Positions 41,553-56,243 of a stretch of DNA of 64,000 nt are shown here, piece after piece; position 1 is the stretch's first letter, and every line of letters begins with the position of its first letter. Under the pieces are notes generated by a model. The model was not told the DNA's origin. It did not search any database and saw only the letters and a program-made list of their open reading frames with translations. The DNA is from Verrucomicrobiota bacterium (GTDB lineage Bacteria; Verrucomicrobiota; Verrucomicrobiia; Limisphaerales; UBA11320). The position numbers and the translations under genes were made by a program. The stretch covers positions 5,756 through 69,755 of the forward strand of contig JACQFQ010000013.1 in NCBI GenBank assembly GCA_016199985.1. Direction: 5' to 3'.

Positions 41553-42026
41553 ATGAAAGCGTCTCTTCCGCGAATCTGCAGATGGGTATTGGGCTCCGTC
41601 CTACTGTCCGCCGCTCTGGGCGCCGGGGCTGACGAGGGGACCGGCACCGTGTTGAGCAGCGTCACGCTTGGCGGTTACGTGAGCACAGGCGCCACTTTCG
41701 AGTCGCCAGCCGATACGACGCTCACCGAGCCACAGGTGATCGGACAGGCGCAGGACCTTGGACTGATTGTTATCAACAACTTTGGTGATTCTCCCTATCG
41801 TAGCGGATCTTACCCTGGACTCTCGCTGTCGGTCCTCTCGATGAGCGACGAGCAAGGGATGACGACGATTCTGGCGACCCCTTACGCTCCCGCTGGGGGC
41901 ATGCCTCCCATCGCGGCGGCGGTCCCCGAACCTTCAACGATTTCGGTGGTCCTCGTGGGCGCGATGGGTTTGCTTCTCGCGCGTCGAGGCCAGGCGAGAC
42001 AATCGCCAGGGTTGAAGCAGCCTTGA
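41553..42026 (+). CDS. Small PEP-CTERM sorting domain protein
   Basis: Signal peptide; C-terminal VPEPST + hydrophobic helix + RR. Confidence 0.85.
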   Translation: MKASLPRICRWVLGSVLLSAALGAGADEGTGTVLSSVTLGGYVSTGATFESPADTTLTEPQVIGQAQDLGLIVINNFGDSPYRSGSYPGLSLSVLSMSDEQGMTTILATPYAPAGGMPPIAAAVPEPSTISVVLVGAMGLLLARRGQARQSPGLKQP

Positions 42027-42141
42027 ACTAGGGGCGAAGCCCGGCCGGATTTCCAACGGACCCGCCCATCAGCGCGCCAGCCTGATCGCAGACGGACTGA
42101 TCAGGATCGAGGGTGACTTTCCCCGGACCGACTCCCTTCCC

Positions 42142-43146
42142 TCACTGCTTACCAAGCAGCGCGTCGCCGCGGGTTGCTCGCAGGGTGATGGCTTTATTGA
42201 TGGTCATCGGTTCGTTGTAGTGGCCCTTGCGAAGAAGGACGATATCGCCCGAGCCGGCGACGCTGACGCCCGTCGCCACCGTTTGGAAAGGGCCTCCAAT
42301 GCCGCCGACGCAGGCGCTGCTCCCGGTCCGGCCGGAGCAACTATTGTTGAGGTCCACGAACCATGTGCGGCCCGTGACAATGCCCGCGGAGACGAGCGAA
42401 TCCGCGGTGTCGGCCATGCGATCCAGTTGGCCGCTGGTCAGCACGTTTCCAGTTCCGTCGTGATGATAGGACATCACGTTGTTGAAGGTGTTGCTCACCA
42501 TCCCGATCTGCCCCAGCGACAGGTTGGGGAAAACGGCGGGAAAGGCATGGGCGCCGATCTGATCAAAGGTCCAGCATTCACGGTCCGGCAAGGTGTCGGC
42601 GACGTCGTCGTCCGTCAAACCGCAGTCCGCGCAGGTCTGGCAGCCGCAGCCTTGGGTGTGGCAGAGGCCGAAGTGATGGCCGGACTCATGGAGGACGGTC
42701 CGGGAGGTGGAGTTGTGACTGACGACCACCATCCCGCTGAACGCGCTCCCGCCGCCCGCGTCGTTGTTGATGTACATATTGGCGGCGGAGTTCCGCCAGC
42801 CAAACGCGGTCGGATTGTTGGCCACCGCCGCCTTGATGATCTCGCTGGCCGTTTGGACATCCACGTTATAGGCCTCGGAGTGGTTGGGAACATCCACGAT
42901 TTCCGTGACACGGAAGTGGTAGCCACGACCGAATGTGTCGAGCAAGGTGTTGATGTCGGTGAAGGCCTGCAGAACATCGGCGTCGGTGAGCAGACTGCCG
43001 CCGGGCGGACGCGCGCCGCCGGCGCTGAGGATGAACTTGACGGACATTTTCATCTCGAGCTGCGCCGCGGCCTCGCGCGGCGAGACGAGCAGAACTCCAG
43101 CGCAGACTGGGAGAAAGAGGAGGCAACGAAGGATTGCGGTTTGCAT
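42142..43146 (-). CDS. Secreted metzincin metalloprotease (M43/pappalysin-like) with short C-terminal DUF1565-like segment
   Basis: Start 43146 (MQTAILRCLLFLPV signal). HESGHHFGLCHT zinc motif, DDDVADT, NVMSY Met-turn, LTSGQLDRM. Confidence 0.8.
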   Translation of the reverse strand: MQTAILRCLLFLPVCAGVLLVSPREAAAQLEMKMSVKFILSAGGARPPGGSLLTDADVLQAFTDINTLLDTFGRGYHFRVTEIVDVPNHSEAYNVDVQTASEIIKAAVANNPTAFGWRNSAANMYINNDAGGGSAFSGMVVVSHNSTSRTVLHESGHHFGLCHTQGCGCQTCADCGLTDDDVADTLPDRECWTFDQIGAHAFPAVFPNLSLGQIGMVSNTFNNVMSYHHDGTGNVLTSGQLDRMADTADSLVSAGIVTGRTWFVDLNNSCSGRTGSSACVGGIGGPFQTVATGVSVAGSGDIVLLRKGHYNEPMTINKAITLRATRGDALLGKQ

Positions 43147-43348
43147 AAGCTGAGCGAGCCATTCGTGGATTAGGCGGACGCTGGCAGGATCGCGGTCCGA
43201 ATGAAAGCAAATTGAGGCATCAAACCGAGGGCGCTTCACGCCAGCCGGGGAGAACGAGAATAGGAGGAGAACCGCGGATGACGGATGACGCGGATAACGC
43301 GGATCGGAAATAAAAGACAGGATTCCCAGCTTCCCATCCGTGAGGAGT

Positions 43349-43825
43349 TCAATCGAGTTCTCCATCATACACGGCCTGGGTCCAACGCCAGTTCGTGAGC
43401 TCCATTTTCTTCGAGATCGAGGTCACCTTGGCGTGAGGAAACGCTTGTTGCAGTTTCCTTATACCTCTTTGTGAAACACGCGTCCCAACCAATCTGATCT
43501 CTTTTATCAATCCGACATCGCATGCATGCGTTGCGGCGCGGGCGGCCACATCTGCATGTCGATCTGAAAACTCTGCTCCCGGCCAAATCCATCGAACAAT
43601 TATGTCGTGCTCCTTTAATACCTGACAGTCGCTATTCAGATCGGCCAAACGAGAGACTAACTGCACCACATCCTTCATATTCCGGCACTGTTCCGGTCTC
43701 AGTCTGCGTGGTGGATGTTGGTGCCTCTCGTAATCCTCGGCTGTGATGGTGAATAATTCCCTGAATTCCTCAGGAAAGTCATCAAGCGGCACAGTGAACG
43801 GTGCCTGAGGTTTCTTGTTTTTCAT
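43349..43825 (-). CDS. Hypothetical protein with LRR-cap-like C-terminus
   Basis: 158-aa ORF with AT-richer codons; IRLVGTRVSQRGIRKLQQAFPHAKV resembles the end of PVC leucine-rich-repeat proteins. Confidence 0.55.
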   Translation of the reverse strand: MKNKKPQAPFTVPLDDFPEEFRELFTITAEDYERHQHPPRRLRPEQCRNMKDVVQLVSRLADLNSDCQVLKEHDIIVRWIWPGAEFSDRHADVAARAATHACDVGLIKEIRLVGTRVSQRGIRKLQQAFPHAKVTSISKKMELTNWRWTQAVYDGELD

Positions 43826-44271
43826 GATGATGACTTAGAATCCTGCTAATTCTTGGGAACTAAGCGAGAATTTGCGTGGTGTCGGCAGAAAACTTCAGAC
43901 CACACACAACCCCCGCCCTCTGGCGGTCCACAACGAGCACCACCGCGAATTAAAAATCAAGACGCTGGTATTTATCACTCCCGAAGCCGGAGCGCGCAAG
44001 CTCGAGACCGGATATGGCGAAGCGGTTCGCATCATCGCTGAGAAACGACATGCAATCGAAGTCGAAATCGTCGGCATCTAAAGCGGTCGGTTTAGCAGAG
44101 TCTTGTAATAAGCTCAAAATGGAGCAAAGGGTCGAGTTTTTAGGATTGTTAAGAAACGCACGTGCCCTTGTGCGTCCGTGACGCTGAATCCTTTTCAGGA
44201 ACCTTCGACCATGTTTGAGCACATGGGGCAACCGAAGCATAGAGGCGTCATTCAGCATGGTGAAGCGGCTC

Positions 44272-45657
44272 CTAGGAAATTGCAGAACGCCGCGCTGGTA
44301 CAAAACCATTGCGCGCGACACGGTGAACGTAGGTTTCTCTGTGGGATATGGCAGACACCGCGTCATCACTGCGGAGTTGATGGGACAGAATTTCCATGCG
44401 CGTGCCGTCATGCAGACCGCGGAACAGTTCGGCCGTCATCCATGCTCCAGCGCAAGCGCCCACGAAGGATGTCGAAATTGCTTTCTTCGCCAGAGTTTCC
44501 GCGAGAACGCCACATTCACCCTTGCCGTGGAACTCTTGGACCAACCGAGGTTGAACCATTCTGTGCGGATTCTCTATGCCGTACGGCCATAGTTCGCGTG
44601 GGATTTTCGCCGCATCTGGGAAAGTGTGCAGCAGGAATGAATCGAAATCGTCCAGGGAACTTCCGAGCCCGCACTCAACCACGAGGTCGAAGCCGGCGTC
44701 GCCGAGGTGCCGACGCGCTCCAGCCGAATCGAAACAGCAGAGCGCGATGCGAGGTTCATCTGATTGACGCTGCGTGAGAGCATCAAAGGCACGCTCATAG
44801 ATGCTTGTCGAGAAGCCTCGCGCTTCCAGCCAATCGGAGACGATGCGCGTCTTGTAGCGACCTATGTGCTGGGATTCGCACAAAAGGCCGGCGCTCATGT
44901 TTCCTTCGACTGCGCGGTCGAAGTCCTGAAGCTGGACTGTGACCTGCGACGAATCGGCGAAAGGCAGCAAACCAAGGTTCCAAGCGACCGCCTGACCGAG
45001 ATGTCCGAGGCCGAGCAGCCAAAACTGCTTTGGCAGGTAGGCGAGTTCCGGCCCCTCCGCGTCCGAATCAAGCCATCCGCTCAATGGATTCCAAAATGAT
45101 GCGCCGCCAGCCACATGGGCAGCCCGCACGCAGATGCCCGACGCTCGGAAGAACGCCTTCGCGACGCCGAGAGCGCCCGCGAAGATTCCTCCCGTGGCGA
45201 AGTCTGATCCGCTCGGCGGGGCAATCATCTCATCGGCGGGAATCACACCACCGCGCCAGCCAGTCGCCAGCACACGCAAGTCGGTTGAGGTTGCGGGCGA
45301 AGAGTCTGGCCCAATGAGCAATACTTCGCCGGATTGAGGCCGGCCATTGACTAAAAGTGCGCCAAGGCTGCGGACAATTTCGTCCAGAGACAGTGCTCCA
45401 GGCCACGGTAAGAGGCATCTGACTGACTCCGGCATCGAAACAGATGTGCCGCCGTGAAAAGCACGTTTGCCGCAGTTTACTGCGGTTAGCAAGGCGGCTT
45501 GGAGTGCAGAAGAATTGCGAATACTTGCGTCACAAACCAGGTGAAGCCGCAATTCACTCAAGATGCGGAGGGACTCATCGTAGCCGACACTGCGCTTGAG
45601 CATGATGGCCTTGGCCAGCCGGCACAGATTGTTCTCGTTGAGACTGTCAGTTGTCAT
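44272..45657 (-). CDS. bilD: E1-like (ThiF) Ubl-activating enzyme, BilD-like
   Basis: N-terminal inactive adenylation-like half, LLGLGHLG, QDFDR...N, KTR, CFDSAGARR, ECGLG, C-terminal GECG candidate catalytic Cys; ATGA overlap with the JAB gene. Confidence 0.85.
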   Translation of the reverse strand: MTTDSLNENNLCRLAKAIMLKRSVGYDESLRILSELRLHLVCDASIRNSSALQAALLTAVNCGKRAFHGGTSVSMPESVRCLLPWPGALSLDEIVRSLGALLVNGRPQSGEVLLIGPDSSPATSTDLRVLATGWRGGVIPADEMIAPPSGSDFATGGIFAGALGVAKAFFRASGICVRAAHVAGGASFWNPLSGWLDSDAEGPELAYLPKQFWLLGLGHLGQAVAWNLGLLPFADSSQVTVQLQDFDRAVEGNMSAGLLCESQHIGRYKTRIVSDWLEARGFSTSIYERAFDALTQRQSDEPRIALCCFDSAGARRHLGDAGFDLVVECGLGSSLDDFDSFLLHTFPDAAKIPRELWPYGIENPHRMVQPRLVQEFHGKGECGVLAETLAKKAISTSFVGACAGAWMTAELFRGLHDGTRMEILSHQLRSDDAVSAISHRETYVHRVARNGFVPARRSAIS

Positions 45658-46130
45658 AAACCAGAGAGTCGCACCCGTCCACCTGTCGGGAGCCAGCGCT
45701 TCCAGCGGTGGCGGCCGAGATATTCATGGATTCCTACGCCCGTAAGCGTGGATTGAGGACGTTGAGCGTAATCAGGAACGATGAGCGAAACGTGTCCTGG
45801 CTGGTTGATCATTGGGTTCGTCCGATCAGAAAAACTTTGTCCTGTCCACTCGTGGGGGTGGGTATGAACGTCGGCCAGCACTTGCAAACAGCGCTCCCTA
45901 CAGAGATTCCAGAGATTCACAAAGCCAGAGCCATGAAAAGTAATGATCCCGGTTTCGAGCGCCACAGAATCCAAATCGTCAAAGCACACGAATTCCGAGA
46001 CGATAGAAGTGCCGGTGCCAGCCAGCAGAAATGCCCCGCTTTCTCGACGGCTTTGTCCTCGATTACGCAGTTCTGCAACCACCCGCCCCCACAAGCTGCG
46101 TGGGATTTCCAAACCAGTCGGCTCATTCAT
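45654..46130 (-). CDS. bilC: JAB/MPN+ metallo-isopeptidase, BilC-like
   Basis: RESGAFLL ... HTHPHEWTGQSFSD matches the exact E...HxHx7SxxD motif; ATG 46130 overlaps the E2 stop. Confidence 0.88.
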   Translation of the reverse strand: MNEPTGLEIPRSLWGRVVAELRNRGQSRRESGAFLLAGTGTSIVSEFVCFDDLDSVALETGIITFHGSGFVNLWNLCRERCLQVLADVHTHPHEWTGQSFSDRTNPMINQPGHVSLIVPDYAQRPQSTLTGVGIHEYLGRHRWKRWLPTGGRVRLSGL

Positions 46131-46593
46131 GGATGCCCTCCAAGCAGTCGTGAACGAATTCGAGATAGCGAACGATGGTGAAGTCCGGTTGCCACCACCA
46201 GCGAGGGAACTGCTGCCGCCATATCTCGTGGCCAATCATAGCCAACCGATCGCATGGAGCGTAGAGCGCGGAAGGATTCCATGACGGTTTGAACACGCGC
46301 GATACATTCACTTCACCCTTCGGCCAACGCTCAGGAGCCAACGGCTTGTTCTCCAGGATGTCCCAGGGACAAGCCGTGGGTGCCTGCTGCGGGTAGCCGT
46401 CCACCGTGAAACGAAGGTACATCCGGCCGTCGGTGATGAATCGCTGATCCACATCGACCCATAACACAGCGTGCGGCCAGACCCCCACTCCGTCTTGTTG
46501 GTGCAATCCCCACTTTCCCAGAGAAGCGCCGAGTTGAAAGGGCGCCTGCTCCAGATGGAGCCGGAATAGGCTCTCGTCGGGACTCGCCATCAT
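46123..46593 (-). CDS. bilB: E2-like Ubl-conjugating enzyme, BilB-like
   Basis: YLRFTVDGYPQQAPTACPWD (E2 YPxxPP-like) and ALYAPCDR candidate catalytic Cys; TGATG overlap with the Ubl gene. Confidence 0.83.
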   Translation of the reverse strand: MMASPDESLFRLHLEQAPFQLGASLGKWGLHQQDGVGVWPHAVLWVDVDQRFITDGRMYLRFTVDGYPQQAPTACPWDILENKPLAPERWPKGEVNVSRVFKPSWNPSALYAPCDRLAMIGHEIWRQQFPRWWWQPDFTIVRYLEFVHDCLEGIHE

Positions 46594-47096
46594 CAGCCCT
46601 CCACCCGCACTTTCGGGACAAGGCAGAGATCCACGGCGCAAACGCGAGGACGGTTATAGCAGCCGATGTGACTGTCCGTCGGCAACGGCTGATTGGCGTC
46701 GCACTGGAGCCGCAACTCCAGTCCTTGAGCATCGGCGCACGCGAGGCCAAAGGCGCTCGCAGCCCATTTGAGCACGCGAGAGACACGGGCGGATGGGGCG
46801 AAAGCTCGTTCCTTGGCCGCGCCGTTGTAATGGACTTTCACTTCCACACGCCGGCAACAATGGCAGTGGAGTAAGTGACGGTGGCCCACCCCGGCGTCGC
46901 ACAGACGCTGATTGAGTTCCAAAGGCTCGTCGTGGTTATCGAGGAAGAGCAACGTCTCCTCGCCGTTCTCGCGCTGGAGCAGACCAGCGTGGTGGATTTG
47001 GTTGGCGAGTTCGCCCACCGAAGCGTCCTCCACGATGGAGACCTGCATGGGCTCAACGGAGTGCGCGAGGTGAACGAAGAGGTCGAGTGTTTTCAT
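46593..47096 (-). CDS. bilA: Two-domain ubiquitin-like (ISG15-like) modifier, BilA-like
   Basis: 167 aa from ATG 47096; two beta-grasp-like halves; ends VPKVRVEG-stop with a free C-terminal Gly; first gene of the Ubl-E2-JAB-E1 operon. Confidence 0.83.
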   Translation of the reverse strand: MKTLDLFVHLAHSVEPMQVSIVEDASVGELANQIHHAGLLQRENGEETLLFLDNHDEPLELNQRLCDAGVGHRHLLHCHCCRRVEVKVHYNGAAKERAFAPSARVSRVLKWAASAFGLACADAQGLELRLQCDANQPLPTDSHIGCYNRPRVCAVDLCLVPKVRVEG

Positions 47097-47175
47097 ACCT
47101 ATTGTCGGTGCATTCTTGAGTTTGTCGCCGCAGAACTGACTGCGGTTCACCTCTTGACTCGTCTGCGCCTTATCG

Positions 47176-47224
47176 AACGGACTAACGCCACATCGAGATT
47201 TTTCTGAATTTTCTTTGGTCCGTT
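47176..47224. promoter_or_regulatory. Operator-like inverted repeat in the divergent bilA/sigma intergenic region
   Basis: AACGGACTAA (47176-47185) and TTGGTCCGTT (47215-47224), 9/10 complementary, flanking a T-tract-rich spacer. Confidence 0.35.
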
Positions 47225-47265
47225 TTTACCGGCCTTACGAGTATGCTGGTAGAAGAGCTTGAAGC

Positions 47266-47919
47266 ATGGTGAGCACCACGAAAACAGTGCAGCCGGACGA
47301 AGACCACATAAAGCTGGGGTTCCTCGGCTCGTACGAAGAGCGCGCCGAGGCACTCGAGCAGCTTTGGCAAATGTACTCATCCCGCCTGACATCGTATGTG
47401 GAAGGTGAATTTCCGGCTTTACCCAAGGATTTGGTCGCCAATGCGGTTCTTGATGCTTACCGGCAGTTGTTTTCAAAGGTTGAAGCGCAGGATTTTGACT
47501 TGGACAGGCCATTGGTGAACTGGTTGTTCAAGACCTGTTGGCGCCGCGCCGCTGATGAGAGGCGAAAATACGTGAGACGGCCGTTGAACTCCGCAGAACT
47601 GTTGGATTGCATCGGCAATGACCTGGAGGGAACAGAAGTCGGGTCCGACTGGCAGGAACTGGCTCGGCAAGATAAAGCGAAAGAAGCAGCCGAGGAGTTC
47701 CGCCGCTTTCTCCTGACGTTGCCAGACGTACAACATCAAGTGGCCCAGGTCGAAGCGGATTTCTACCCGGACAAGCCCAATCGTGAAGAGATTTGTGAGG
47801 AAATCTATCGTCGAACCGGAAAACGGCCGACGGTTGTGCAAGTCAAGAGCGCCCGTGCGCAGATTTGGCAAAAACTTCGTTCATTTGTCGAACGTCGAAA
47901 GAACAGGAAGAACGTATGA
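47266..47919 (+). CDS. Divergent ECF-like sigma-70 factor
   Basis: Region 2-like ALEQLWQMYSSRLTSYV...DLVANAVLDAY...NWLFKTCWRRAADERRK and region 4-like LLTLPDVQHQVA...EEICEEI...VKSARAQIWQKLR. Confidence 0.75.
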   Translation: MVSTTKTVQPDEDHIKLGFLGSYEERAEALEQLWQMYSSRLTSYVEGEFPALPKDLVANAVLDAYRQLFSKVEAQDFDLDRPLVNWLFKTCWRRAADERRKYVRRPLNSAELLDCIGNDLEGTEVGSDWQELARQDKAKEAAEEFRRFLLTLPDVQHQVAQVEADFYPDKPNREEICEEIYRRTGKRPTVVQVKSARAQIWQKLRSFVERRKNRKNV

Positions 47920-48302
47920 AAACGCCGCCTCAACAGGACCGCGAAGACCGGGCTGTTGATGCCCTGGTCGCGGCCGCTCTGCGTCAAGCAGAGTTCAACG
48001 AACCCAGCGACGAGGAGATTCAGAAATTCCTCGCCAATGTCCCGCCGATGTCACCGGAAGGGAAAGCAGCCCTCGATGCTTTGGGGCCGGATATTGTCCA
48101 ACGCATCACCCAAGCATCATCAAGGCAGTCACCATCCGCTCGCGCCACACAGGCCGAAGAAGAACTCTCGCCTCTCTATATGGCGATGAATCGCAAGAAC
48201 GCCTCCGGCGAGATGGATGCTCGCACCAAGGAGGAACTGGAAAAGAAGCGCAAGGAAGCACTCGAACGCATCAAGAACCGCAAGAAGCAACGCGGCAAAT
48301 GA
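47916..48302 (+). CDS. Small soluble helical protein, candidate anti-sigma factor / peptidase substrate
   Basis: 128 aa, ATGA overlaps at both ends (sigma upstream, peptidase downstream). Acidic N-half, low-complexity linker, YMAMNRK, basic C-terminal helix. Function inferred only from context. Confidence 0.65.
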   Translation: MKTPPQQDREDRAVDALVAAALRQAEFNEPSDEEIQKFLANVPPMSPEGKAALDALGPDIVQRITQASSRQSPSARATQAEEELSPLYMAMNRKNASGEMDARTKEELEKKRKEALERIKNRKKQRGK

Positions 48303-49102
48303 AGATTGGCGAGGTCGAGCAACAGGCGGACGATGTTTTGTCCGCCTACGAAGTGTGTACCGCTCCGGTCGATGTGCTGACAATTGCAAAGGCAGAGGGA
48401 ATCGAATTGGCCGAAGGTGACTACGCGGAGCCGTTCTGTGGCCGCATCGAATACCATCGCGAGGTCGGAAGTTTTGTTCTGTTCCATCCCCGGCTGGAAA
48501 CGGCCAGGAGCTTGGGCCGCGCTCGATTCTCGATTGCGCACGAGCTGGGTCACTATTTCCTGGAGCATCACCGTGCGATGCTCATGTCGGGAGGAAGCCA
48601 CAATTCCACCAGCGATTTCATCTGTGACGACGCTTTGGAACGCGAAGCGGATGGATTCGCGGCTGCATTGCTGATTCCGTCTTTCGCGCTTCGACAACGA
48701 CTTGCGCGTCGCCGGTTTATGACCTTGCGCGAAGTCCTCGCGCTGGCGCAGGAATGGCAAAGTTCCGCCACGAGTGCTGCCATCCGCTACGCCCGCTTCA
48801 CGTCGGAAGCGTGCAGCGTTGTAGTTTCGCAAGACGGTATCGTCCAGTTCTACTCACCGTCCGATGAAGCGAGGGCGATGGGGTTTGGCTTCTTGCGCAA
48901 GGGAGCGCCCGTTCCTTCACGCTCGAAAACGTTCGACGCGGGGAAGCCTGATGTCGCAAATGACATTCGCGAAGGCACAAGCAACACCGAGGACTGGTTC
49001 TCTGAGCGACGATTCCACCGGGAGCTTTGGGAAGAAGCTTTCCCCCTTGGCGGCACCGGCATGGTGCTTACGCTCCTTGCTCTGAAAACAGGGCCGGACT
49101 GA
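48299..49102 (+). CDS. ImmA/IrrE (M78) family zinc metallopeptidase with C-terminal GAF-like extension
   Basis: PVDVLTIA, RARFSIAHELGHYFL (HEXXH), EREADGFAAALLIP, SSATSAAIRY; no N-terminal HTH. Confidence 0.9.
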   Translation: MKIGEVEQQADDVLSAYEVCTAPVDVLTIAKAEGIELAEGDYAEPFCGRIEYHREVGSFVLFHPRLETARSLGRARFSIAHELGHYFLEHHRAMLMSGGSHNSTSDFICDDALEREADGFAAALLIPSFALRQRLARRRFMTLREVLALAQEWQSSATSAAIRYARFTSEACSVVVSQDGIVQFYSPSDEARAMGFGFLRKGAPVPSRSKTFDAGKPDVANDIREGTSNTEDWFSERRFHRELWEEAFPLGGTGMVLTLLALKTGPD

Positions 49103-49250
49103 TCGCGCGCGACCGATTTAACCAAACCGCTTGCACTTTCTGCGCGGCGTGATACAAAACGCCATTCCTTCCAGCCACACGGTCAACGCAACCGAGTTGC
49201 GATAACGGGACCGGGTGAATACGGAAGGCGGCCATCGGCAAACGACACCA

Positions 49251-49448
49251 ATGACCAAAACCAAGCAGACCTTGCACAAGGGAGATGGCGTGACCCAGCT
49301 GGCTCACGAGACCAAGCGTTGGATTGCTTCCAGCAAAGGCCAGGAAACCATTCGACGAGCTTTGGCCGCAGCCAACCGCACGACTCAGCGCCTGGCGGAA
49401 GTCCGCAGTGTCAGTCGCGAGGCGTTGCACGAACCAGTGACTCGGTGA
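49251..49448 (+). CDS. Small basic hypothetical protein (65 aa)
   Basis: ATG 49251, amphipathic helix-like sequence, ends 7 nt before the next gene. Confidence 0.55.
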   Translation: MTKTKQTLHKGDGVTQLAHETKRWIASSKGQETIRRALAAANRTTQRLAEVRSVSREALHEPVTR

Positions 49449-49455
49449 TTCCCTC

Positions 49456-51015
49456 ATGGCCAACGCGTTCGAGGTTGCACCTTACTCCATCGACGCGTTG
49501 AAACGATTGCTGCGTCGGGGCGCCAGAGCGTCGGCGCTTGTAGTAAGCCGCAAGCAGCACACGCAGTACTTCCGAAATTACTTCAAGGCACTCAACGCGA
49601 AGACCATCGTCTCCGAGGCCGACTACATCGATCGGGATTACCTCGAAGACTTCGCCGGGTACTACGTTCGTTGCTTTCCCAATTACGCCCGGCGTTGCCG
49701 GCGGCTTCACTTTTTTGATTTCACTTTCTCCAAAGCGGACTTCACGAACCTGCTTGCTTCGCAGGCCGACAAAAAGACACTCGCGCGCTTTCAGAAGGGC
49801 TACTTGGGATTTCTCGTTGTCAAGCCACTGCCGGAAACCATCATCGGGCGCACCTGTTTGCGAACGTATATCGAGAAGGACGAGCGCTGCTTTCCAATTA
49901 CGCGCCACTACGAGGCCAATCTTTTCGGCATCCCTCTGACGGTCAAGTCGCTCGCTTACCAAGAGCAGGACCGCGTGGCTGCGGCTTGCGCGACGAGTGC
50001 TCTCTGGTCGGTCTTCCACGGCACAGGGAAGCTCTTTCATCACCACATCCCGTCTCCAGTCGAGATTACCCGTGCGGCCAACGTCTTTGTTCCCTCGAGC
50101 AGCCGCAGTTTGCCGAGCAGTGGACTCAGCGTCTTCCAGATGGCACAGGCAATGCGCAGCGTGAGCCTGGAGCCGTATTACGTGAAGGCTTCGAACGATT
50201 ACGTCCTCAAAAGCACTCTCTACGCTTATCTGCGCGGGCGAGTCCCCGTGCTGCTGGGGATCGACCTTTATGAAATGGAGAAAGGAAAGGCCCATTTCGA
50301 CGGCAAACATGCTGTCACAGCCACCGGCTTTCGCCTTGAGAAGCTCAAGCCGGAGCCTCATGGCGACACTAAATTTCTTCTGCGTGCCTCTCGGATGAAC
50401 AAGCTCTACGCGCACGACGATCAAGTGGGACCATTTGCACGAATGATCTTGGATGGTGTGGAAGTAATGACCCGGTCCACTGGTAAGCAAACCTCGTTGA
50501 CCACCTCATGGGTGCCGCGCTTCGGCGATCAAATTCGCGCGGTTCCCGACGTCATGCTGGTGCCGCTGTACCACAAGATTCGCATTCCCTTTGACAGGGT
50601 ACATGATGCCGTGGTGCGCTTCGACAGCTTCGTGGAAGAACTCCGAAAACTAGCGCCAAACGTGCTTCGAGAAAGATTTGAGTGGGACATCTACCTGACC
50701 AATGGCAACGAACTCAAGAGCGAGATTCTGAAAGCGGACTCCATCAGTGGGAGCGAGAAGCAACAAGTGTTGTCCCAGCCGATGCCTCGCTTCATCTGGC
50801 GTGCCGCCGCGCGATTCGGAGGGACAACCATTCTTGACCTGCTTTTCGACGCCACTGATATCGAGCAAGGAGACTTTTTTGTTCGCGCAGTTGAATATGA
50901 TACCGGTGTCTCAAAGTTCTTCCGCCTGATTGCACGCGAACGCTCTCTACTGCGTTTGTTTGATCTTGGAGGCGAATCCCGGATTATAAATTGGTTTGCC
51001 AAACAACAGGCGTAG
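49456..51015 (+). CDS. Uncharacterised protein with papain-like (C39-like) cysteine peptidase motifs
   Basis: 519 aa; QEQDRVAAACATSALW (Gln/Cys), GKHAVTATGF (His), LYAHDDQVGPF (Asp); no signal peptide. Confidence 0.7.
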   Translation: MANAFEVAPYSIDALKRLLRRGARASALVVSRKQHTQYFRNYFKALNAKTIVSEADYIDRDYLEDFAGYYVRCFPNYARRCRRLHFFDFTFSKADFTNLLASQADKKTLARFQKGYLGFLVVKPLPETIIGRTCLRTYIEKDERCFPITRHYEANLFGIPLTVKSLAYQEQDRVAAACATSALWSVFHGTGKLFHHHIPSPVEITRAANVFVPSSSRSLPSSGLSVFQMAQAMRSVSLEPYYVKASNDYVLKSTLYAYLRGRVPVLLGIDLYEMEKGKAHFDGKHAVTATGFRLEKLKPEPHGDTKFLLRASRMNKLYAHDDQVGPFARMILDGVEVMTRSTGKQTSLTTSWVPRFGDQIRAVPDVMLVPLYHKIRIPFDRVHDAVVRFDSFVEELRKLAPNVLRERFEWDIYLTNGNELKSEILKADSISGSEKQQVLSQPMPRFIWRAAARFGGTTILDLLFDATDIEQGDFFVRAVEYDTGVSKFFRLIARERSLLRLFDLGGESRIINWFAKQQA

Positions 51016-51432
51016 TTGCCGTTACTCCCGTAGGTCTGATCCGCCCTTGACCAACGCGCGCTTCGTTTGGCGACTGTGCTAGCGACCAGTTCATGAGAAT
51101 GAGAGGAAAGTAAGCAGGGAATTGGTTGACCGCGCTCCGGGGAATCGTGGAAAAAAGTCTCCCACGTCTTGCGAAGCCGGACCGGCGATCACACCAGGAG
51201 GGCGATTCATTCGCGATCCCCGCTGTCCGTCGTCGCACCGGCTGCGTCAGATGGGGGAGGCAGGAGCGATAGCGAAGCGACGAGTCACACCAGGGTTCTC
51301 ATGAACTCATAGCTATGGAACGGCCCAGAAGTTTGCAATTTCGAAAAGCCTTACAGCTCCAGACCTCAATCGTCACACCAGCGAACGGCTTCTCAAGCTC
51401 GGGGAACACAAAGTGATGGCGTTGCTCCTGTC

Positions 51433-54315
51433 CTACAAGCTCCGGAGCCGGAAGAATTTCACGCGCTCATTGACCTCGATGGTCACCCGGTCGATGCCGC
51501 CCGATGCGACGGCAGGCTTCGTAACGCTGATCCAGGAGTCGGGCAAGAGATTGGTGGAACACTCCAGCACAAACCGGTCGAAGACCTCCGGCCACGAGAT
51601 GATGACTTGCTGGCCCAAGCGCTGAACGGACAGTTGAGGCAGTAGCGGCGCACTGTCCTCAGCGGAATGGAAGCCATCCTCGGCCTGGAGAATCACCCGG
51701 GCGTTGCTCTCGGGCGCCGGAAGTGAAGCCAGGCTCACGGTGAGCTGGGTGAGATCCGCATCCGTGACGAGCAGGTAGCGATCGGCCCCGTTCGGCGAAT
51801 ACAGAACGGAGTAGCGGAGCGAATCGCCATCCGGATCGGAGCCGCTCCAGCGCAGGCGCACCGCCGCGTTGGTCTGTTGCACCGAAAGGATCCGGACCGC
51901 AGGCGGAGCAGCGCTGGACGTGGCGGAAGCCAGCGGCGCGCCTTCTTTGAGAAGTCGGACCGAATGCGTGTTCGGCGGGAGATCGAGGACAAAATTGAAA
52001 GCAGACGAGTCCAGCGCACGGTCGCCGTCGAAGCCAAGATGCTGCAGGAAGGACAAGGTAAACGGGACAGTGCCGACGACATTGTTGGCCTGGTCTCGAA
52101 ACTCAATCGCATACGGACCCGGCTGCGGCGACTCGAAGCTAAACGTCGTGGTGGACACGATGAAGGGATCGAATGCCGCTTTGCCAGCCTGGCTGACCCT
52201 ACCGGAAATCAAAATAACCTGGCGCGGCGGCGCGGCCACCAGATCGAAAGCTTGCTTCCGCCGTTGCAGCTCCTTGGTCAGCCGGGGATAAAGATATTCG
52301 TAAGCCGATTGGCGAGTCCAGGCGCGGACATCCCCACCTCCCTCGAGCGCAGCCCCAATGCCAGCCGGAACGGCGGAGCGACCCGTACCACTCATGTATC
52401 CATAAACCGCTCCCAGGGCGATGGGTTCAGGCTCAGGTTGCGGCGGATTTTTGCTGGCATCCACTGTAATGAACACGCCGGCGCCAGCGTCCGAAGTCAC
52501 CGGAAGATCGTCATCACGTTTCTTCAGCACTGGCCTCAGGCCGCTGACATCGAAGGCCATCTCCTCCTCCAGAATATAGTACCCCGCAGAGGTGCCTTGG
52601 GCATCCATCTTCTCCCCATGGGCTGCATTCACTCCCCCCCCGGAGCTCGGGTTCGCATAGTCATCTCCAAAGCCCTGCGTGTGACCAATCTCGTGAGCCA
52701 CCGTGGACCCGATGATCACCGCATTGGGTCGGAGCAGAGTGGGATCGCCGCTGGGGATGCGGTCCAGGGTGATGACAGTCTTGGGACTTGGTTGATTGCG
52801 CAAGGTAAAGCCCAGCAAGGAAACCCCCTCATCCTTTCCAGCGGGAGCGTTGTTGGCGCCAACCACATTGTTCGCCACGGCCAGGACGAAGTTGTTTTGA
52901 GGACTGGTCTGCCCGTAAAGATTGGTCACAGCCTTGTCATTGCGGAGAATCTGGCAGAGGAAATGTTTCTGGAATCGACTCAGGTCGTTGCAATCCAGCT
53001 CACTTCTCCCATCAAGGTCATATCGAGGCAGGACTGTGACCTGCACGTGCTCCTCGTCCACGGGATAGACGCGGCGAAGAAAGTCACCGGCCTGCTCCAG
53101 CAGGACCCCATCAGCGGTATCCGGACCAGGGGCCGGGGAATCCTCCGGGCCAATCAGATTGCCTTTCCCGTCGTCAAGACCCACCGGGAGGACGAAAATG
53201 TTGATCTGCACGCTTTCGCGAAACAGACACGTGAGCGTGTCGGTCATCTCAGGAAGGACGCCGGCGCTTCTCGGAGAAACGCGAACAGAAAAGGTATGTG
53301 TACCGGCGGTAAGCAGTCGGTTTGCGGTGTCGCCGGTGATGAAAAAATTGAGACTATCCTCGGCTCGGCGACGCTGGCCCAAAGTGAAACTGTGACCCAA
53401 CGGATAGAACTTTCCGCTGCTGCGAAACAGCTCATCCGACGCGCAGCTGCCTGCGTCGCCATCGACGCACAGGGAGGCGTCCACGTCAGCCGTGGGGCCG
53501 TCGACACCGGTGTCACCAAACACCCGCACCACCAGGTCCTTTCCCGCGACCAGCGCATAACTGCACCCGCCCACGAGCGCCGGCTGACGGTTGAGAACTG
53601 TTTGGATCGGCACCGTGCGAATTCTGGAGATAAGAAACTCAGCGGTCACGGCGCCGACATTATCGTCATACCAACCTGCAGGGAGGGTGCCGCCGCAATG
53701 ATCGGGGATGCCCAGGAAAAGACGCGTCGCGTTCGTGGGAACGATGAATCGTTGAACCTGTCCCAAGGCCGTCAGCCCATCTCCAATATAAAAGACCTGG
53801 CCGATGCCAGGCTCCAGGTTTGTGAAGGCGAGGCTGATCGCGGCGAAATTGATGGCCGGTGGCGCCGGGTTCACGGGCTCGATGTCTGAGAGAAAGACCC
53901 CCACCAGGCAGGCATAGCGTTGAGCCTCAAAACCCGAGATACCATTCACGGGGCTGATGATAAAGCCACTGGGTCCGCTGTCGGATCCATGCCCCTCCGG
54001 CAAAGCCGCGCCGCCGAACGCTACATCAATCGTGCCGGTAACCTTGGAGAATGTGAGCACTTGTCCGCAAGCGGCAGGAAAGGAGAACGAAACGGGCGGC
54101 AAGCCTCCTCCTCCACCCGTTTGTGGCGTGTTTTTGGGTGATGAGTGCCCCGCCCCAAAGATGTTGCAGCGGGCATCCACCACGAGTGTAGCTGCATGAA
54201 GACCAGGAGTGAAAGACAGAGACAGAGCTGATCCCAGGAAGGCTGAAGTCGCACCAACGCGGGTGACTTTGACGCTCAGGATCCTCAGGAGAGATCTTAC
54301 GAGGCCATTTCTCAT
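51433..54315 (-). CDS. Secreted multidomain zinc metallopeptidase
   Basis: Signal-like N-terminus ending LHA, lectin-like N-domain, VAHEIGHTQGFGD, YGYMSG Met-turn-like, FN3-like WSGSDPDGDSLRYSV, C-terminal ISWP...LECSTNL...W...FFRL tail. Confidence 0.78.
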   Translation of the reverse strand: MRNGLVRSLLRILSVKVTRVGATSAFLGSALSLSFTPGLHAATLVVDARCNIFGAGHSSPKNTPQTGGGGGLPPVSFSFPAACGQVLTFSKVTGTIDVAFGGAALPEGHGSDSGPSGFIISPVNGISGFEAQRYACLVGVFLSDIEPVNPAPPAINFAAISLAFTNLEPGIGQVFYIGDGLTALGQVQRFIVPTNATRLFLGIPDHCGGTLPAGWYDDNVGAVTAEFLISRIRTVPIQTVLNRQPALVGGCSYALVAGKDLVVRVFGDTGVDGPTADVDASLCVDGDAGSCASDELFRSSGKFYPLGHSFTLGQRRRAEDSLNFFITGDTANRLLTAGTHTFSVRVSPRSAGVLPEMTDTLTCLFRESVQINIFVLPVGLDDGKGNLIGPEDSPAPGPDTADGVLLEQAGDFLRRVYPVDEEHVQVTVLPRYDLDGRSELDCNDLSRFQKHFLCQILRNDKAVTNLYGQTSPQNNFVLAVANNVVGANNAPAGKDEGVSLLGFTLRNQPSPKTVITLDRIPSGDPTLLRPNAVIIGSTVAHEIGHTQGFGDDYANPSSGGGVNAAHGEKMDAQGTSAGYYILEEEMAFDVSGLRPVLKKRDDDLPVTSDAGAGVFITVDASKNPPQPEPEPIALGAVYGYMSGTGRSAVPAGIGAALEGGGDVRAWTRQSAYEYLYPRLTKELQRRKQAFDLVAAPPRQVILISGRVSQAGKAAFDPFIVSTTTFSFESPQPGPYAIEFRDQANNVVGTVPFTLSFLQHLGFDGDRALDSSAFNFVLDLPPNTHSVRLLKEGAPLASATSSAAPPAVRILSVQQTNAAVRLRWSGSDPDGDSLRYSVLYSPNGADRYLLVTDADLTQLTVSLASLPAPESNARVILQAEDGFHSAEDSAPLLPQLSVQRLGQQVIISWPEVFDRFVLECSTNLLPDSWISVTKPAVASGGIDRVTIEVNERVKFFRLRSL

Positions 54316-54678
54316 AAGCGACACTTTTGAATTACATTAACGTGCTCAGATTTCGTGCCCGCTGTCAAAGCACGAGTGTCGTATGCGAGAAGAACCTCAT
54401 TTGGAGGGCTGGCGCGCGGAGGCGTAGCGACACGGGAAGTCTGCCGAAGCCCGACCCCCGCCCCAGGAGCTTCGGCGGGCAGCCTTGCTCTCACTCGGCT
54501 TCCTCCATCGCCAAAAGCGAAGGGGCACAAGCGAGCGAAGGAGGAACAGGTGGAAATCTCGAATCTCTGGAAGGGGGCTTGCCACAAGCCGTAGCAACAG
54601 GGGAGGTCCGTCGAAGCCCGCCTACACCCAAGGGGCTTTGGCGAGGCGCCCTTGCTCACACTACGTTTGAGCGAAGGC

Positions 54679-54755
54679 TGGTGCACCCACCAGGAGTTGA
54701 ACCTGGAACCTTCTGATCCGTAGTCAGATGCTCTATCCAATTGAGCTATGAGTGC
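54679..54755 (-). tRNA. tRNA-Arg (ACG)
   Basis: Reverse complement GCACTCATAGCTCAATTGGATAGAGCATCTGACTACGGATCAGAAGGTTCCAGGTTCAACTCCTGGTGGGTGCACCA; cloverleaf with encoded CCA. Confidence 0.97.
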
Positions 54756-54770
54756 AAAACCGAGGGGCAG

Positions 54771-54799
54771 AAATTAGTGACGCACTCCCCGCGGGGCAA
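54771..54799 (-). promoter_or_regulatory. Putative sigma-70 promoter of tRNA-Arg
   Basis: TTGCCC-N17-TAATTT on the minus strand, ending 15 nt upstream of the tRNA. Confidence 0.5.
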
Positions 54800-54869
54800 G
54801 TGCTATTTTCTCAATCCCCATTTTCTCTCCGCTTGTTTGCCCCCGGCGTCCGACCGGCGCCGGGTCCTC

Positions 54870-56243
54870 TCACCTCACGTAAACAGGGTTCGAAAACACC
54901 CACGGCCTCTGCTCGCCATCGAGTTGGAGCCAGGCCTCCAACCGGTAGGCACCGGCTTCCGCGAGCGGGAACTCGAATAACTCCCTGCCCTCCGACCTCG
55001 CCACTTCCTCGCCGTGTCGCAGCAGGCGAATGAGAGCGGGGACGGGCAACGACGCCTTCAACTTCAGGCCCGGGACCCACTTCACCTCGTCGCCCATCAG
55101 TCCGACACGCTCGCCGCCGGCCGTCAGCGCCTCAAAGCGAAACCCGGTCGCATCGCACATCCAGTCATGAGCGACGAACGCGCGGCCGGCCTTCAGCGCG
55201 GCTCGGACGGACGCTTCGTCCAGCTCCGCTGCCAGCACATGTGTGCTGACGTTGCGGAAGGATCTGTAATACGGATCCATGTCCACCTTCGCGAGAAGGT
55301 CGCCGGGCTGATGTCCCTTTGTCAGTTGTCGGATGCCGGGACGCAACAAGGCCTTGAACTGTTTCAGATCGGAGTCCTTGTCGACAATCGTGCCCAGCGC
55401 CACCGTCTCGGCATCCACCATCTTCATCACGAAGACTTGATTGTGGTGGCAGTCGTTTGCCGCGATTCCGGTCAGCCGCCTTGTCCTGGTCCCCGAGTCC
55501 CATTTCTCGAGGTAGATCTGCGGATAGTCGCACTGGAACGCGAGCGTTTCATCCGGATACAGCCGCACGGCTTCCTGGAGTTCGGCCAAGCCTTCAGGAT
55601 CGGTGAGCTTCATGGCGAGAGCGATCAATGATCCGGGATCCCGCTTCGCGTCCCAGTGGCGGTTGTAGATCTCCAGCCCGGTCAGGCCTTCGAGCGAGTG
55701 ATCGGGCCGCTCCTCGATGTGGGACAGGAAAATCAGCCCTTCGCCTCCGGCCACAGCGGTCACGAAGTCTGGAGTCGGCAATTGCATCTTGTCCAAGATA
55801 GACACCATGGGATGGATGTCGAATCCCCGGACCTCCGAGCCCGGAATGAACAGCACTCCTTCTTTCAATCCACGCCAACGTCCGTCGATAAAATCACGCG
55901 GCGGACGGAAGTGATCCGCAAGGAGGATCGCGCTCACGCCCGCTCTCTTCGCGTCCGCGAGCATTTCAGGCAGCGTCCCTCCCGTGTGAGCCGAGTCCTC
56001 GGCGTGCGCGTGGAGAATGCATCGGTGATCATGGAGCCCCGCCATGGGCGGTGGCGAGGCTCGCCGGGAGCGAAGGCGCTCGGCGTCTTCGTGCGCGGCC
56101 CTCAGATGAGCGAGGGCGAGACGCTCCACGTTCGAGCGCTGGCGCGCCGGCGCGCGTCCCGGTTCCGCCCCGCGCAGCGACGCGGAGTTCAAGAGCGCGA
56201 GAGCGATGGAGGCGCCCACCGCGGCGGCGATTCTGTGAGCCAT
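54870..56243 (-). CDS. Exported PHP-like metallohydrolase
   Basis: Signal peptide; HAHAEDSAH, LADH, PGSE, LSHIEE, GLEIYN, ANDCHH; C-terminal GAYRLE...FSNPVYV. Confidence 0.8.
   Translation of the reverse strand: MAHRIAAAVGASIALALLNSASLRGAEPGRAPARQRSNVERLALAHLRAAHEDAERLRSRRASPPPMAGLHDHRCILHAHAEDSAHTGGTLPEMLADAKRAGVSAILLADHFRPPRDFIDGRWRGLKEGVLFIPGSEVRGFDIHPMVSILDKMQLPTPDFVTAVAGGEGLIFLSHIEERPDHSLEGLTGLEIYNRHWDAKRDPGSLIALAMKLTDPEGLAELQEAVRLYPDETLAFQCDYPQIYLEKWDSGTRTRRLTGIAANDCHHNQVFVMKMVDAETVALGTIVDKDSDLKQFKALLRPGIRQLTKGHQPGDLLAKVDMDPYYRSFRNVSTHVLAAELDEASVRAALKAGRAFVAHDWMCDATGFRFEALTAGGERVGLMGDEVKWVPGLKLKASLPVPALIRLLRHGEEVARSEGRELFEFPLAEAGAYRLEAWLQLDGEQRPWVFSNPVYVR

Follow-up and report, generated by a model that had tools for sequence, protein, structure and literature searches.

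How can a CapP peptidase govern a defence operon when no helix-turn-helix (HTH) repressor is encoded beside it? The question is raised by a locus in a 64,000-nt stretch of DNA from a Verrucomicrobiota bacterium (GenBank assembly GCA_016199985.1, contig JACQFQ010000013.1, positions 5,756 to 69,755 of the forward strand), further referred to as the window. An operon of three genes, the triad, stands there head-to-head with the ubiquitin-like defence operon bilABCD. It encodes a sigma-like protein of 217 aa, a soluble protein of 128 aa and a CapP peptidase of the ImmA/IrrE type. We read the triad as an activator-type CapP controller, in which the repressor CapH is replaced by a sigma factor resembling the extracytoplasmic function (ECF) type and by a short soluble partner, and assign to this reading a probability of about 0.6.

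The protein families of the window were scored against PADLOC, Pfam and NCBIfam. An earlier note, made from the sequence alone, had described the three genes as chained by ATGA overlaps and facing the Bil operon over a 169-bp gap, with no HTH repressor present. The open reading frames (ORFs), the overlaps and the PADLOC matches agree with this layout:

44272–45657, minus strand: bilD, E1-like protein of 461 aa (PADLOC BilD, 7.9e-131, residues 5–444; weak Pfam ThiF match).
45654–46235, minus strand: bilC, JAB deubiquitinase-like protein (PADLOC BilC, 2.8e-56, residues 33–182; weak Pfam Prok-JAB match); the real start may lie 3' of the listed TTG.
46123–46641, minus strand: bilB, E2-like protein, DUF7665 (PADLOC BilB, 2.2e-47; Pfam DUF7665, 1.4e-38).
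46593–47096, minus strand: bilA, ubiquitin-like protein of 167 aa from the ATG at 47096 (PADLOC BilA, 1.9e-42, residues 19–185 of the ORF 46593–47150).
47097–47265: gap of 169 bp between bilA and the sigma gene.
47266–47919, plus strand: ECF-type sigma gene, 217 aa.
47916–48302, plus strand: small-protein gene, 128 aa from the ATG.
48299–49102, plus strand: capP, 267 aa.

The ATGA start-stop overlaps at 47916–47919 and 48299–48302 were read directly from the sequence. The system on the other side of the gap is Bil, given that all four PADLOC models were matched (1.9e-42 to 7.9e-131) in the order bilA-B-C-D on the minus strand. Since the BilA profile opens at residue 19 of the ORF, bilA likely starts at the ATG at 47096; the start of bilB is uncertain, as the profile match opens at residue 18 of its ORF. 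No HTH family was detected in the three triad proteins by Pfam, NCBIfam or PADLOC.

The identity of the first gene was settled at the level of its family. Taken alone, the 217-aa protein stays under the curated cut-offs, with no Pfam sigma match and a weak best NCBIfam ECF match (1.4e-5). A HMMER search with a six-sequence profile against 1.84 billion representatives yielded 338 clusters with an E-value of at most 1e-3, 154 of these with one of at most 1e-10, almost all of them about 200–230 aa long and matching end to end. An alignment of 101 full-length members was then used. Sigma70_r2 is found in 59 of the 101 relatives, Sigma70_r4_2 in 4 and Sigma70_ECF in 4. The profile of the 101 members matches the solved ECF sigma factors AlgU (1.1e-12), CnrH (4.8e-11) and sigma-E (2.2e-9), and the match to SigW spans profile positions 24–203. 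The AlphaFold2 model has a mean predicted local distance difference test score (pLDDT) of 76, and its top Foldseek rows are nearly all ECF sigma factors; region 2 of sigma-E superimposes with a root-mean-square deviation (rmsd) of 2.5 Å and a template modelling (TM) score of 0.78 by target. Over the whole protein the Foldseek E-values do not fall below 0.02; such weak values are to be expected when two domains are joined by a flexible linker. As the earlier note had supposed, the first gene of the triad thus encodes an ECF-type sigma factor, one from a divergent and unnamed family, and the family profile and Foldseek place it in group 4, that is, among the two-domain sigma factors having regions 2 and 4 only.

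This gene is the most variable part of the cassette. Between the window and locus L009 the small protein is 91% and CapP 92% identical, compared with 38% for the sigma factor; among the window and loci L008–L011, the sigma genes are 33–38% identical vs 74–92% for the small protein and CapP. A database protein, P0007, is a hybrid that resembles the window sigma factor in the C-terminal 75 residues only. These comparisons point to a mosaic sigma gene that changes faster than the rest of the cassette, with recombination occurring within it.

Is the triad a unit? Related loci were collected by pattern scans with the small protein, which gave 11 metagenome and 2 genome loci; two more distant copies (G395 and G270) came from a search of the phylum, so that 15 loci in total were compared by tblastn with the window proteins. 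The sigma gene is present in all 15, capP in 14 (the contig of L011 stops within the small gene) and the small gene also in 14, the fifteenth (G270) being recognised by a hidden Markov model (HMM) at 1.1e-11. The gene order sigma-small-capP is identical in every related locus that is long enough. A scan of genome contigs with the sigma alignment gave 95 pattern matches, none of which was confirmed.

The phylum search covered 401 genomes. With the sigma profile, family members (2e-37 or better) were found in five of them (G000, G395, G156, G270 and G179), and ordinary ECF sigma factors scored 9e-18 or worse, leaving a clean gap. The PADLOC capP model was matched over its full length by 17 genes from 16 genomes (E 9.7e-38 or better) and in part within four larger ORFs. 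Each of the 17 is preceded by an ORF of 119–158 aa and, before that, by an ORF of 189–250 aa; together with the constant order in all long-enough loci, this places the arrangement far beyond chance. The 17 upstream sigma-like proteins fall into three groups: five belong to the sigma family of the window, six to a group A7 and six to a group A8 (including a near-identical copy from G282). Both groups resemble the window family in profile comparison by hhalign, A7 over both domains with Prob 91.6% and E 8e-7, A8 with Prob 97.6% and E 4.5e-12. When Pfam was applied to 10 of these upstream proteins, Sigma70_r2 was found in seven (8.6e-9 to 0.073; four above the gathering score) and no sigma match of any kind in the other three. 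The CapH profile matched upstream of none of the 17 full-length capP genes. It did match three of the four ORFs with partial capP matches (L079, L080 and L081 from G336, G234 and G317; 352–441 aa), which are probably fused HTH-M78 proteins, an arrangement distinct from the triad.

In plasmids, no match to the window sigma factor was obtained by tblastn. We inspected 8 of 40 plasmid records having a CapP relative. Seven are Proteobacterial and carry the classical HTH and CapP pair facing operons of cyclic oligonucleotide-based antiphage signalling systems (CBASS) or Bub-like operons. The eighth, found via CapP, is from a Planctomycete (Isosphaeraceae) and encodes a “sigma factor”, a hypothetical protein and a CapP-like protein; the sigma factor and the small protein align weakly with their window counterparts. 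The neighbourhood search that the earlier note had called for thus shows the sigma gene, the small gene and the peptidase gene recurring together (in 15 loci and at 17 of 17 capP genes of the phylum) and adjoining defence operons, and the triad is supported as a conserved unit.

What, then, would the sigma factor recognise? The 169-bp gap holds two divergent copies of one ECF-like motif with boxes TTGGTCC and CGAGT and spacer N17/18, and in addition an inverted repeat:

47128–47145, minus strand: inverted repeat CCGCAG-N6-CTGCGG, between the predicted promoter P_bil and the bilA start.
47157–47184, minus strand: predicted promoter P_bil, TAGTCC-N17-CGAGT, facing bilA; its blocks are conserved across the 9-locus alignment of the gap.
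47216–47242, plus strand: predicted promoter P_sig, TGGTCC-N16-CGAGT (as hexamers, TTGGTC-N17-CGAGTA), facing the sigma operon and ending 24 nt before the ATG.

The 9-locus alignment of the gap is only 59% identical, and the invariant columns are found mainly in and around the two boxes. Both boxes, in both orientations, are also present in related Bil loci. A promoter matrix was built from 14 sites of other loci, with the window left out. The sigma-side site of the window reached the maximum score (20.53), which just three of 13.66 million genome positions attain; by our estimate from base composition, about one position would do so by chance. Two other perfect matches in G000 were considered as promoters and dropped; they lie inside long ORFs and are probable chance matches.

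The letters of the motif follow the subgroups of loci. Both −35 boxes read ATGCTCC instead of TTGGTCC in L008 and L019, a concerted change. In subgroup D (G395 and L020) the outward promoter copy points at a DUF2235 operon. The motif of subgroup E (G156 and G270) is TTGTTC-N16/17-CGAATCC, and the predicted recognition helix of region 4 differs in this subgroup as well. A whole-genome pattern search with the subgroup E motif gave exactly two matches in G156 (3.6 Mb) and two in G270 (6.4 Mb), in each genome the divergent pair at the sigma gene, and the reversed-pattern control gave 0+0 and 0+1 matches. No sigma-70-type site was called in the gap by a simple sigma-70 scan. ECF sigma factors are usually co-transcribed with their anti-sigma factors and autoregulated; the −35 and −10 boxes that autoregulation predicts at the sigma factor's own and target genes are present here in silico as paired, subgroup-specific motifs. 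These patterns are the strongest new evidence that the sigma factor acts on the operon next door: very probably it initiates transcription at both divergent promoters, and the module governs that operon.

A GC-rich inverted repeat is also kept at related loci, with other letters on both arms in L008, L010 and L014, and in two copies in L016–L018. The copy at 47128–47145 could form a hairpin in the leader RNA of bilA or serve as an operator.

The third gene encodes a complete CapP. The PADLOC capP model matches at 1.4e-50 over profile positions 4–241 of 242, and Pfam Peptidase_M78 (PF06114, the ImmA/IrrE type) at 3.2e-15. The zinc-peptidase signature HEXXH is present as HELGH at residues 81–85 (H81-E82-x-x-H85), followed by E116; both HExxH and E-x-x-A-D align with the canonical CapP proteins, so that this is a full-length M78 peptidase. 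In subgroups A–D only, a cysteine (C109) is conserved between HEXXH and E116; its spacing, compared with the published description, is unlike the H100/C113/E129 cysteine switch of Thauera. A cysteine-switch loop is reported in 33% of CBASS CapP proteins (10.1101/2022.04.27.489752).

The middle gene would have to supply the substrate. Its 128-aa product has no family in Pfam, NCBIfam or PADLOC. Foldseek against the PDB returned 0 rows, a PDB profile search 0 matches, the VIA wide search Z of 4.3 or less with meaningless rmsd, and the protein Atlas no usable match; an anti-sigma domain of known type was not detected by the Pfam, PDB profile and VIA wide searches. The AlphaFold2 model is all-helical (pLDDT 68) with residues 74–81 disordered, and by eye there is no long hydrophobic stretch, as in a soluble protein. 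The protein begins with a conserved, net-acidic helical part (12 D/E vs 8 K/R in residues 1–70) and ends in a basic helix; between the two are a disordered linker of variable sequence and, after it, an invariant motif. The motif is Y88-x-A90-M91-N92-R93-K94, preceded by L87 in the window and by (S)PL in the Bil-linked A–C sequences. It lies about 35 residues from the C-terminus, and YMAMNRK is the most conserved stretch of the protein. The small proteins of all three sigma families share [LA]-x-[LAI]-A-[AMC]-[RN]-[NRH], followed some 10 residues on by [ST]-x-E-E-L.

Seven aligned canonical CapH proteins have PL[FY]-R at the position matching this motif, in the region where CapH is cut according to Lau et al. 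(10.1101/2022.04.27.489752); the likeness to S-P-L-Y-M of the small protein is suggestive, though no more than a lead. In sequence terms the motif is a likely recognition or cut site of CapP. A complex prediction with the sigma-family and small-protein alignments gave scores of 0.64, 0.76 and 0.64, but one unrelated control reached 0.50, so that the prediction speaks neither for binding nor against it. The position of the small gene, 3' of the sigma gene with a start-stop overlap, fits a co-transcribed anti-sigma partner. We propose that the small protein is both the anti-sigma factor and the CapP substrate.

The pieces can be joined as follows. In the resting cell the 128-aa protein would keep the sigma factor inactive. 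Single-stranded DNA (ssDNA) from DNA damage or phage replication, a trigger taken from published work on CapP, would activate the peptidase, which would cleave the small protein in or beside the invariant motif L-Y-x-A-M-N-R-K. The released sigma factor would take RNA polymerase to the two private divergent promoters in the 169-bp gap. One of them would boost bilABCD; the other would boost the sigma operon, giving positive feedback and then a reset by fresh anti-sigma factor. We think it somewhat better than an even chance that the full chain is right, namely that CapP cuts the anti-sigma factor and thereby frees the sigma factor to activate the adjacent defence operon.

Several observations weigh against this scheme. 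The bil-side −35 box of the window, TTAGTC, departs from the consensus. The promoter motifs were first spotted by eye, and the strict pattern, which was derived with the window included, is not rare: 10 genome matches, two of them in the gap, vs about 16 expected. The promoters are therefore argued for from their conservation, their pairing and the findings in subgroup E. A loose pattern, GTCC-N16-22-CGAGTA, gave fewer matches than its reversed control in G000, G395 and G179 and is uninformative. For the small protein, no relative in fold or sequence was found, and hhalign showed no significant similarity between its family and the seven canonical CapH proteins (E 0.25, Prob 0.24%); for this reason we take the motif as a likely recognition or cut site and name no bond. 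As anti-sigma factors, the nearly identical small proteins of the window and L009 would have to bind two very different sigma factors, presumably via conserved surfaces. Finally, the inverted repeat between P_bil and bilA could be a repressor operator.

Bil stands divergently upstream in 8 of the 13 pattern-scan loci, in addition to the window; contigs L012, L013, L015, L018 and L020 end in or just past the intergenic region, so that the neighbour is unreadable. The other subgroups face different systems. In G156 the triad faces a lamin-tail-domain gene and then JetABCD (PADLOC 1.6e-94 to 1.8e-275), that is, a Wadjet system, and PDC-S06 (3.1e-303) is found downstream of the triad. Across the gap from the G270 triad lie a lamin-tail-domain gene and a CBASS consisting of a CD-NTase (4.8e-63) and a 2TM effector (9.2e-66); type I restriction-modification (R-M) genes and a HEPN/RES protein are found downstream of this triad. 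In G395 the triad faces a small gene and a Tle1-like/DUF2235 hydrolase (Pfam 1.7e-66), and a type III restriction enzyme and an integrase are in the vicinity. The contigs of G179 and L020 are too short to show neighbours. The divergent placement typical of CapH and CapP controllers is thus found over the 169-bp gap of the window, at the eight related Bil loci, and at the Wadjet, CBASS and DUF2235 operons of G156, G270 and G395. To occur beside defence systems that are unrelated to one another is characteristic of the portable Cap controllers described by the Corbett laboratory (PMC13373217).

The lamin-tail-domain gene is the first one facing the triad in subgroup E (L022, 10972–11712, plus strand; L053, 10579–11106, plus strand). 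Its Pfam LTD matches (6.4e-8 and 9.1e-7 for L022 and L053) are both below the gathering score. As it precedes two different defence systems, CBASS in one locus and Wadjet in the other, it may be a part of the controller and not of the defence system. Several modules are followed by further genes on the same strand: a four-gene cluster ending in ThiF/E1 at L078 (G168; 2292–3759, plus strand), an HNH endonuclease with a glycine zipper at L075/L076 (1023–1466, minus strand) and a NERD nuclease at L073 (562–1434, minus strand). These may be further conflict genes under control of the modules.

On the other side of capP, two genes follow wherever the Bil-type contigs reach that far:

49251–49448, plus strand: ORF of 65 aa without a family, present in all 10 loci with a readable spacer between capP and orf519.
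49456–51015, plus strand: orf519, found by tblastn with 51–91% identity in nine loci (L008, L010, L012–L017 and L019).

No Pfam or PADLOC family was found for orf519, and its Atlas look-alikes are unnamed; a weak lead is Peptidase_C39_2, which occurs in 11% of the members of one look-alike cluster. The protein carries Cys and His motifs, AACATSALW and GKHAVTATG. We considered that orf519 might be driven by the sigma motif and rejected this, as by eye its spacer lacks the motif and has a conserved TTGCAC-N17-TACAAA-like box. The orf519 product may be a fifth component of the Bil cassette; both orf519 and the 65-aa ORF are co-conserved neighbours and only putatively parts of the switch. The region of about 42–56 kb of the window is a low-GC mosaic stretch (about 57–60% vs 64–68% elsewhere), which was probably acquired horizontally. 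At about 42000–56000 this island contains an M43-like metallopeptidase gene (42142–43368, minus strand), a 158-aa ORF, the Bil cassette with the triad, orf519 and a 963-aa ORF (51433–54324, minus strand).

Could the same parts work differently? The small protein might be a DNA-binding repressor, like CapH with no recognisable HTH, that occupies the promoter or the repeat at 47128–47145 until it is cut, the sigma factor being always active and providing promoter specificity only. Known CapP partners are DNA-binding repressors, the inverted repeat between P_bil and bilA is conserved, the small protein ends in a strongly basic tail, and its 91% identity beside a sigma factor only 38% identical is easier to explain if it does not bind sigma. 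However, no HTH or other DNA-binding family was detected in it, and the net charge of residues 1–70 is acidic. The repeat is present on the bil side only, and its letters vary between loci with nearly the same small protein, such as the window and L008. Moreover, the slot directly 3' of an ECF sigma gene with a start-stop overlap is the classic anti-sigma position. We consider a repressor of this kind unlikely.

The peptidase might also act on the sigma factor itself, trimming its N-terminal extension as in the pro-sigma processing of Bacillus sporulation, with the small protein being an adaptor or a CapP inhibitor. The sigma factor does carry about 25 residues ahead of region 2, with an invariant D-E-D-x-x-K; yet this stretch is modelled as ordinary helices with pLDDT 86–88 from residue 11 on, it is the small protein that contains the most invariant short motif of the cassette, about as far from the C-terminus as in CapH, and no precedent for an M78 peptidase was found in the literature searched. 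Such processing is quite improbable. We give still less credence to the idea that the triad works on its own as a stress module, or controls another gene such as orf519, and that its adjacency to bil is an accident of a crowded island. It is true that bil is no more tightly co-conserved with the triad than are orf519 and the 65-aa ORF, that the island is a low-GC mosaic, and that no obvious annotated defence gene lies alongside the triad of the Isosphaeraceae plasmid. Against this, a second copy of the sigma-operon motif, with subgroup-specific letters, faces the neighbouring operon in four subgroups; PADLOC-recognised defence neighbours were found in 4 of 4 informative contexts not of the Bil type; and the spacer before orf519, judged by eye, shows its own type of box rather than the sigma motif.

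How does the proposed activator compare with the described controllers? The available text of PMC13373217 recognises three families as of 2026, CapW/BrxR, CapH with CapP, and CapK with CapS, none of them sigma-based. Of 162 Bil operons, 25 have CapH and CapP encoded divergently upstream (Chambers et al. 2023, 10.1101/2023.09.26.559546). CapP cuts CapH near the C-terminus at F82/R83, R83A is uncut, and ssDNA activates CapP (Lau et al. 2022, 10.1101/2022.04.27.489752); in the available text of that work, ssDNA activation and partner cleavage are known for the CapP of E. coli MS115-1 only. The triad shares with this pair a full-length CapP, the placement of the module divergently upstream of a defence operon with a common promoter region, a small partner with a conserved motif near its C-terminus, and movement of the module between defence systems. 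It differs in that an ECF-type sigma gene heads the operon, there is no HTH repressor of the XRE type, that is, no CapH, and the partner is not significantly similar to CapH (E 0.25). CapH and CapP lift repression at a housekeeping promoter, whereas the window module would activate via a private pair of sigma factor and promoter with positive feedback.

The closest sigma-based case is DdvS/DdvA of Myxococcus xanthus, an ECF sigma factor and a transmembrane anti-sigma factor that govern a CBASS-CRISPR island (PMC11506125). In both cases an ECF sigma factor with a cognate anti-sigma factor, here a proposed one, would govern anti-phage systems. As far as the description in that source allows comparison, DdvA is transmembrane, whereas the window partner is short, has by eye no hydrophobic segment, and shares its operon with CapP. 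With ImmR/ImmA and DdrO/IrrE, as summarised by Lau et al. (10.1101/2022.04.27.489752), the triad would share the cleavage of a neighbouring regulator by an M78 peptidase after DNA damage, although the substrates there are HTH repressors of mobile-element or repair genes and no sigma factor takes part. CapW/BrxR and CapK with CapS are likewise portable, DNA-damage-responsive controllers at promoters of varied defence operons, including Bil and Bub; the proteins, a WYL repressor in the former and a kinase with a STAS-winged HTH repressor in the latter, are unrelated to those of the triad, and both relieve repression (PMC13373217). The placement of the triad beside Bil, Wadjet, CBASS, type I R-M and DUF2235 operons matches that of the known Cap controllers, as had been anticipated.

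The earlier note had also said that it knew of no described regulator with this arrangement, which stands in part. In the openly accessible main texts searched, no study of a mechanism combining sigma factor, anti-sigma factor and CapP was found beyond one sentence of Lau et al. and the work on DdvS/DdvA. However, that sentence already mentions 24 CBASS systems encoding capH and capP “alongside” a sigma-70-family sigma factor, an arrangement not itself studied in the available text (Lau et al. 2022, 10.1101/2022.04.27.489752). The arrangement is a sigma-based variant of CapP controllers, noticed once in print.

Whether sigma factor, anti-sigma factor and CapP form a distinct and widespread class of activating defence controllers is, in our estimate, an evenly balanced matter. 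One consequence is practical: loci annotated as “CapP without CapH” should not be regarded as orphans. The parts of the module, a 169-bp promoter region and three small genes, are possibly useful as an orthogonal damage-inducible expression switch. If the class is real, the triad would be the standard CapP partner set in Verrucomicrobiota, also occurring on a Planctomycete plasmid, and CapP would cut the small protein at the invariant motif [LA]-x-A-x-[RN]-[NRH]. Each module, having its own sigma factor and promoter pair, would be an insulated positive-feedback switch that can be placed before any defence operon; so far, DUF2235 or nuclease genes have been seen in this place as well as Bil, Wadjet, CBASS and R-M. 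The mosaic sigma genes would reflect pressure for private promoters or escape from phage mimics of anti-sigma factors. The described controllers of defence operons that respond to DNA damage (CapW/BrxR, CapH with CapP, and CapK with CapS) all act by lifting repression; a CapP module that releases a dedicated sigma factor would be a way of activating them, with insulated promoters and positive feedback as part of the design, and this would explain how toxic systems of the abortive-infection type can be kept fully silent and then fire strongly.

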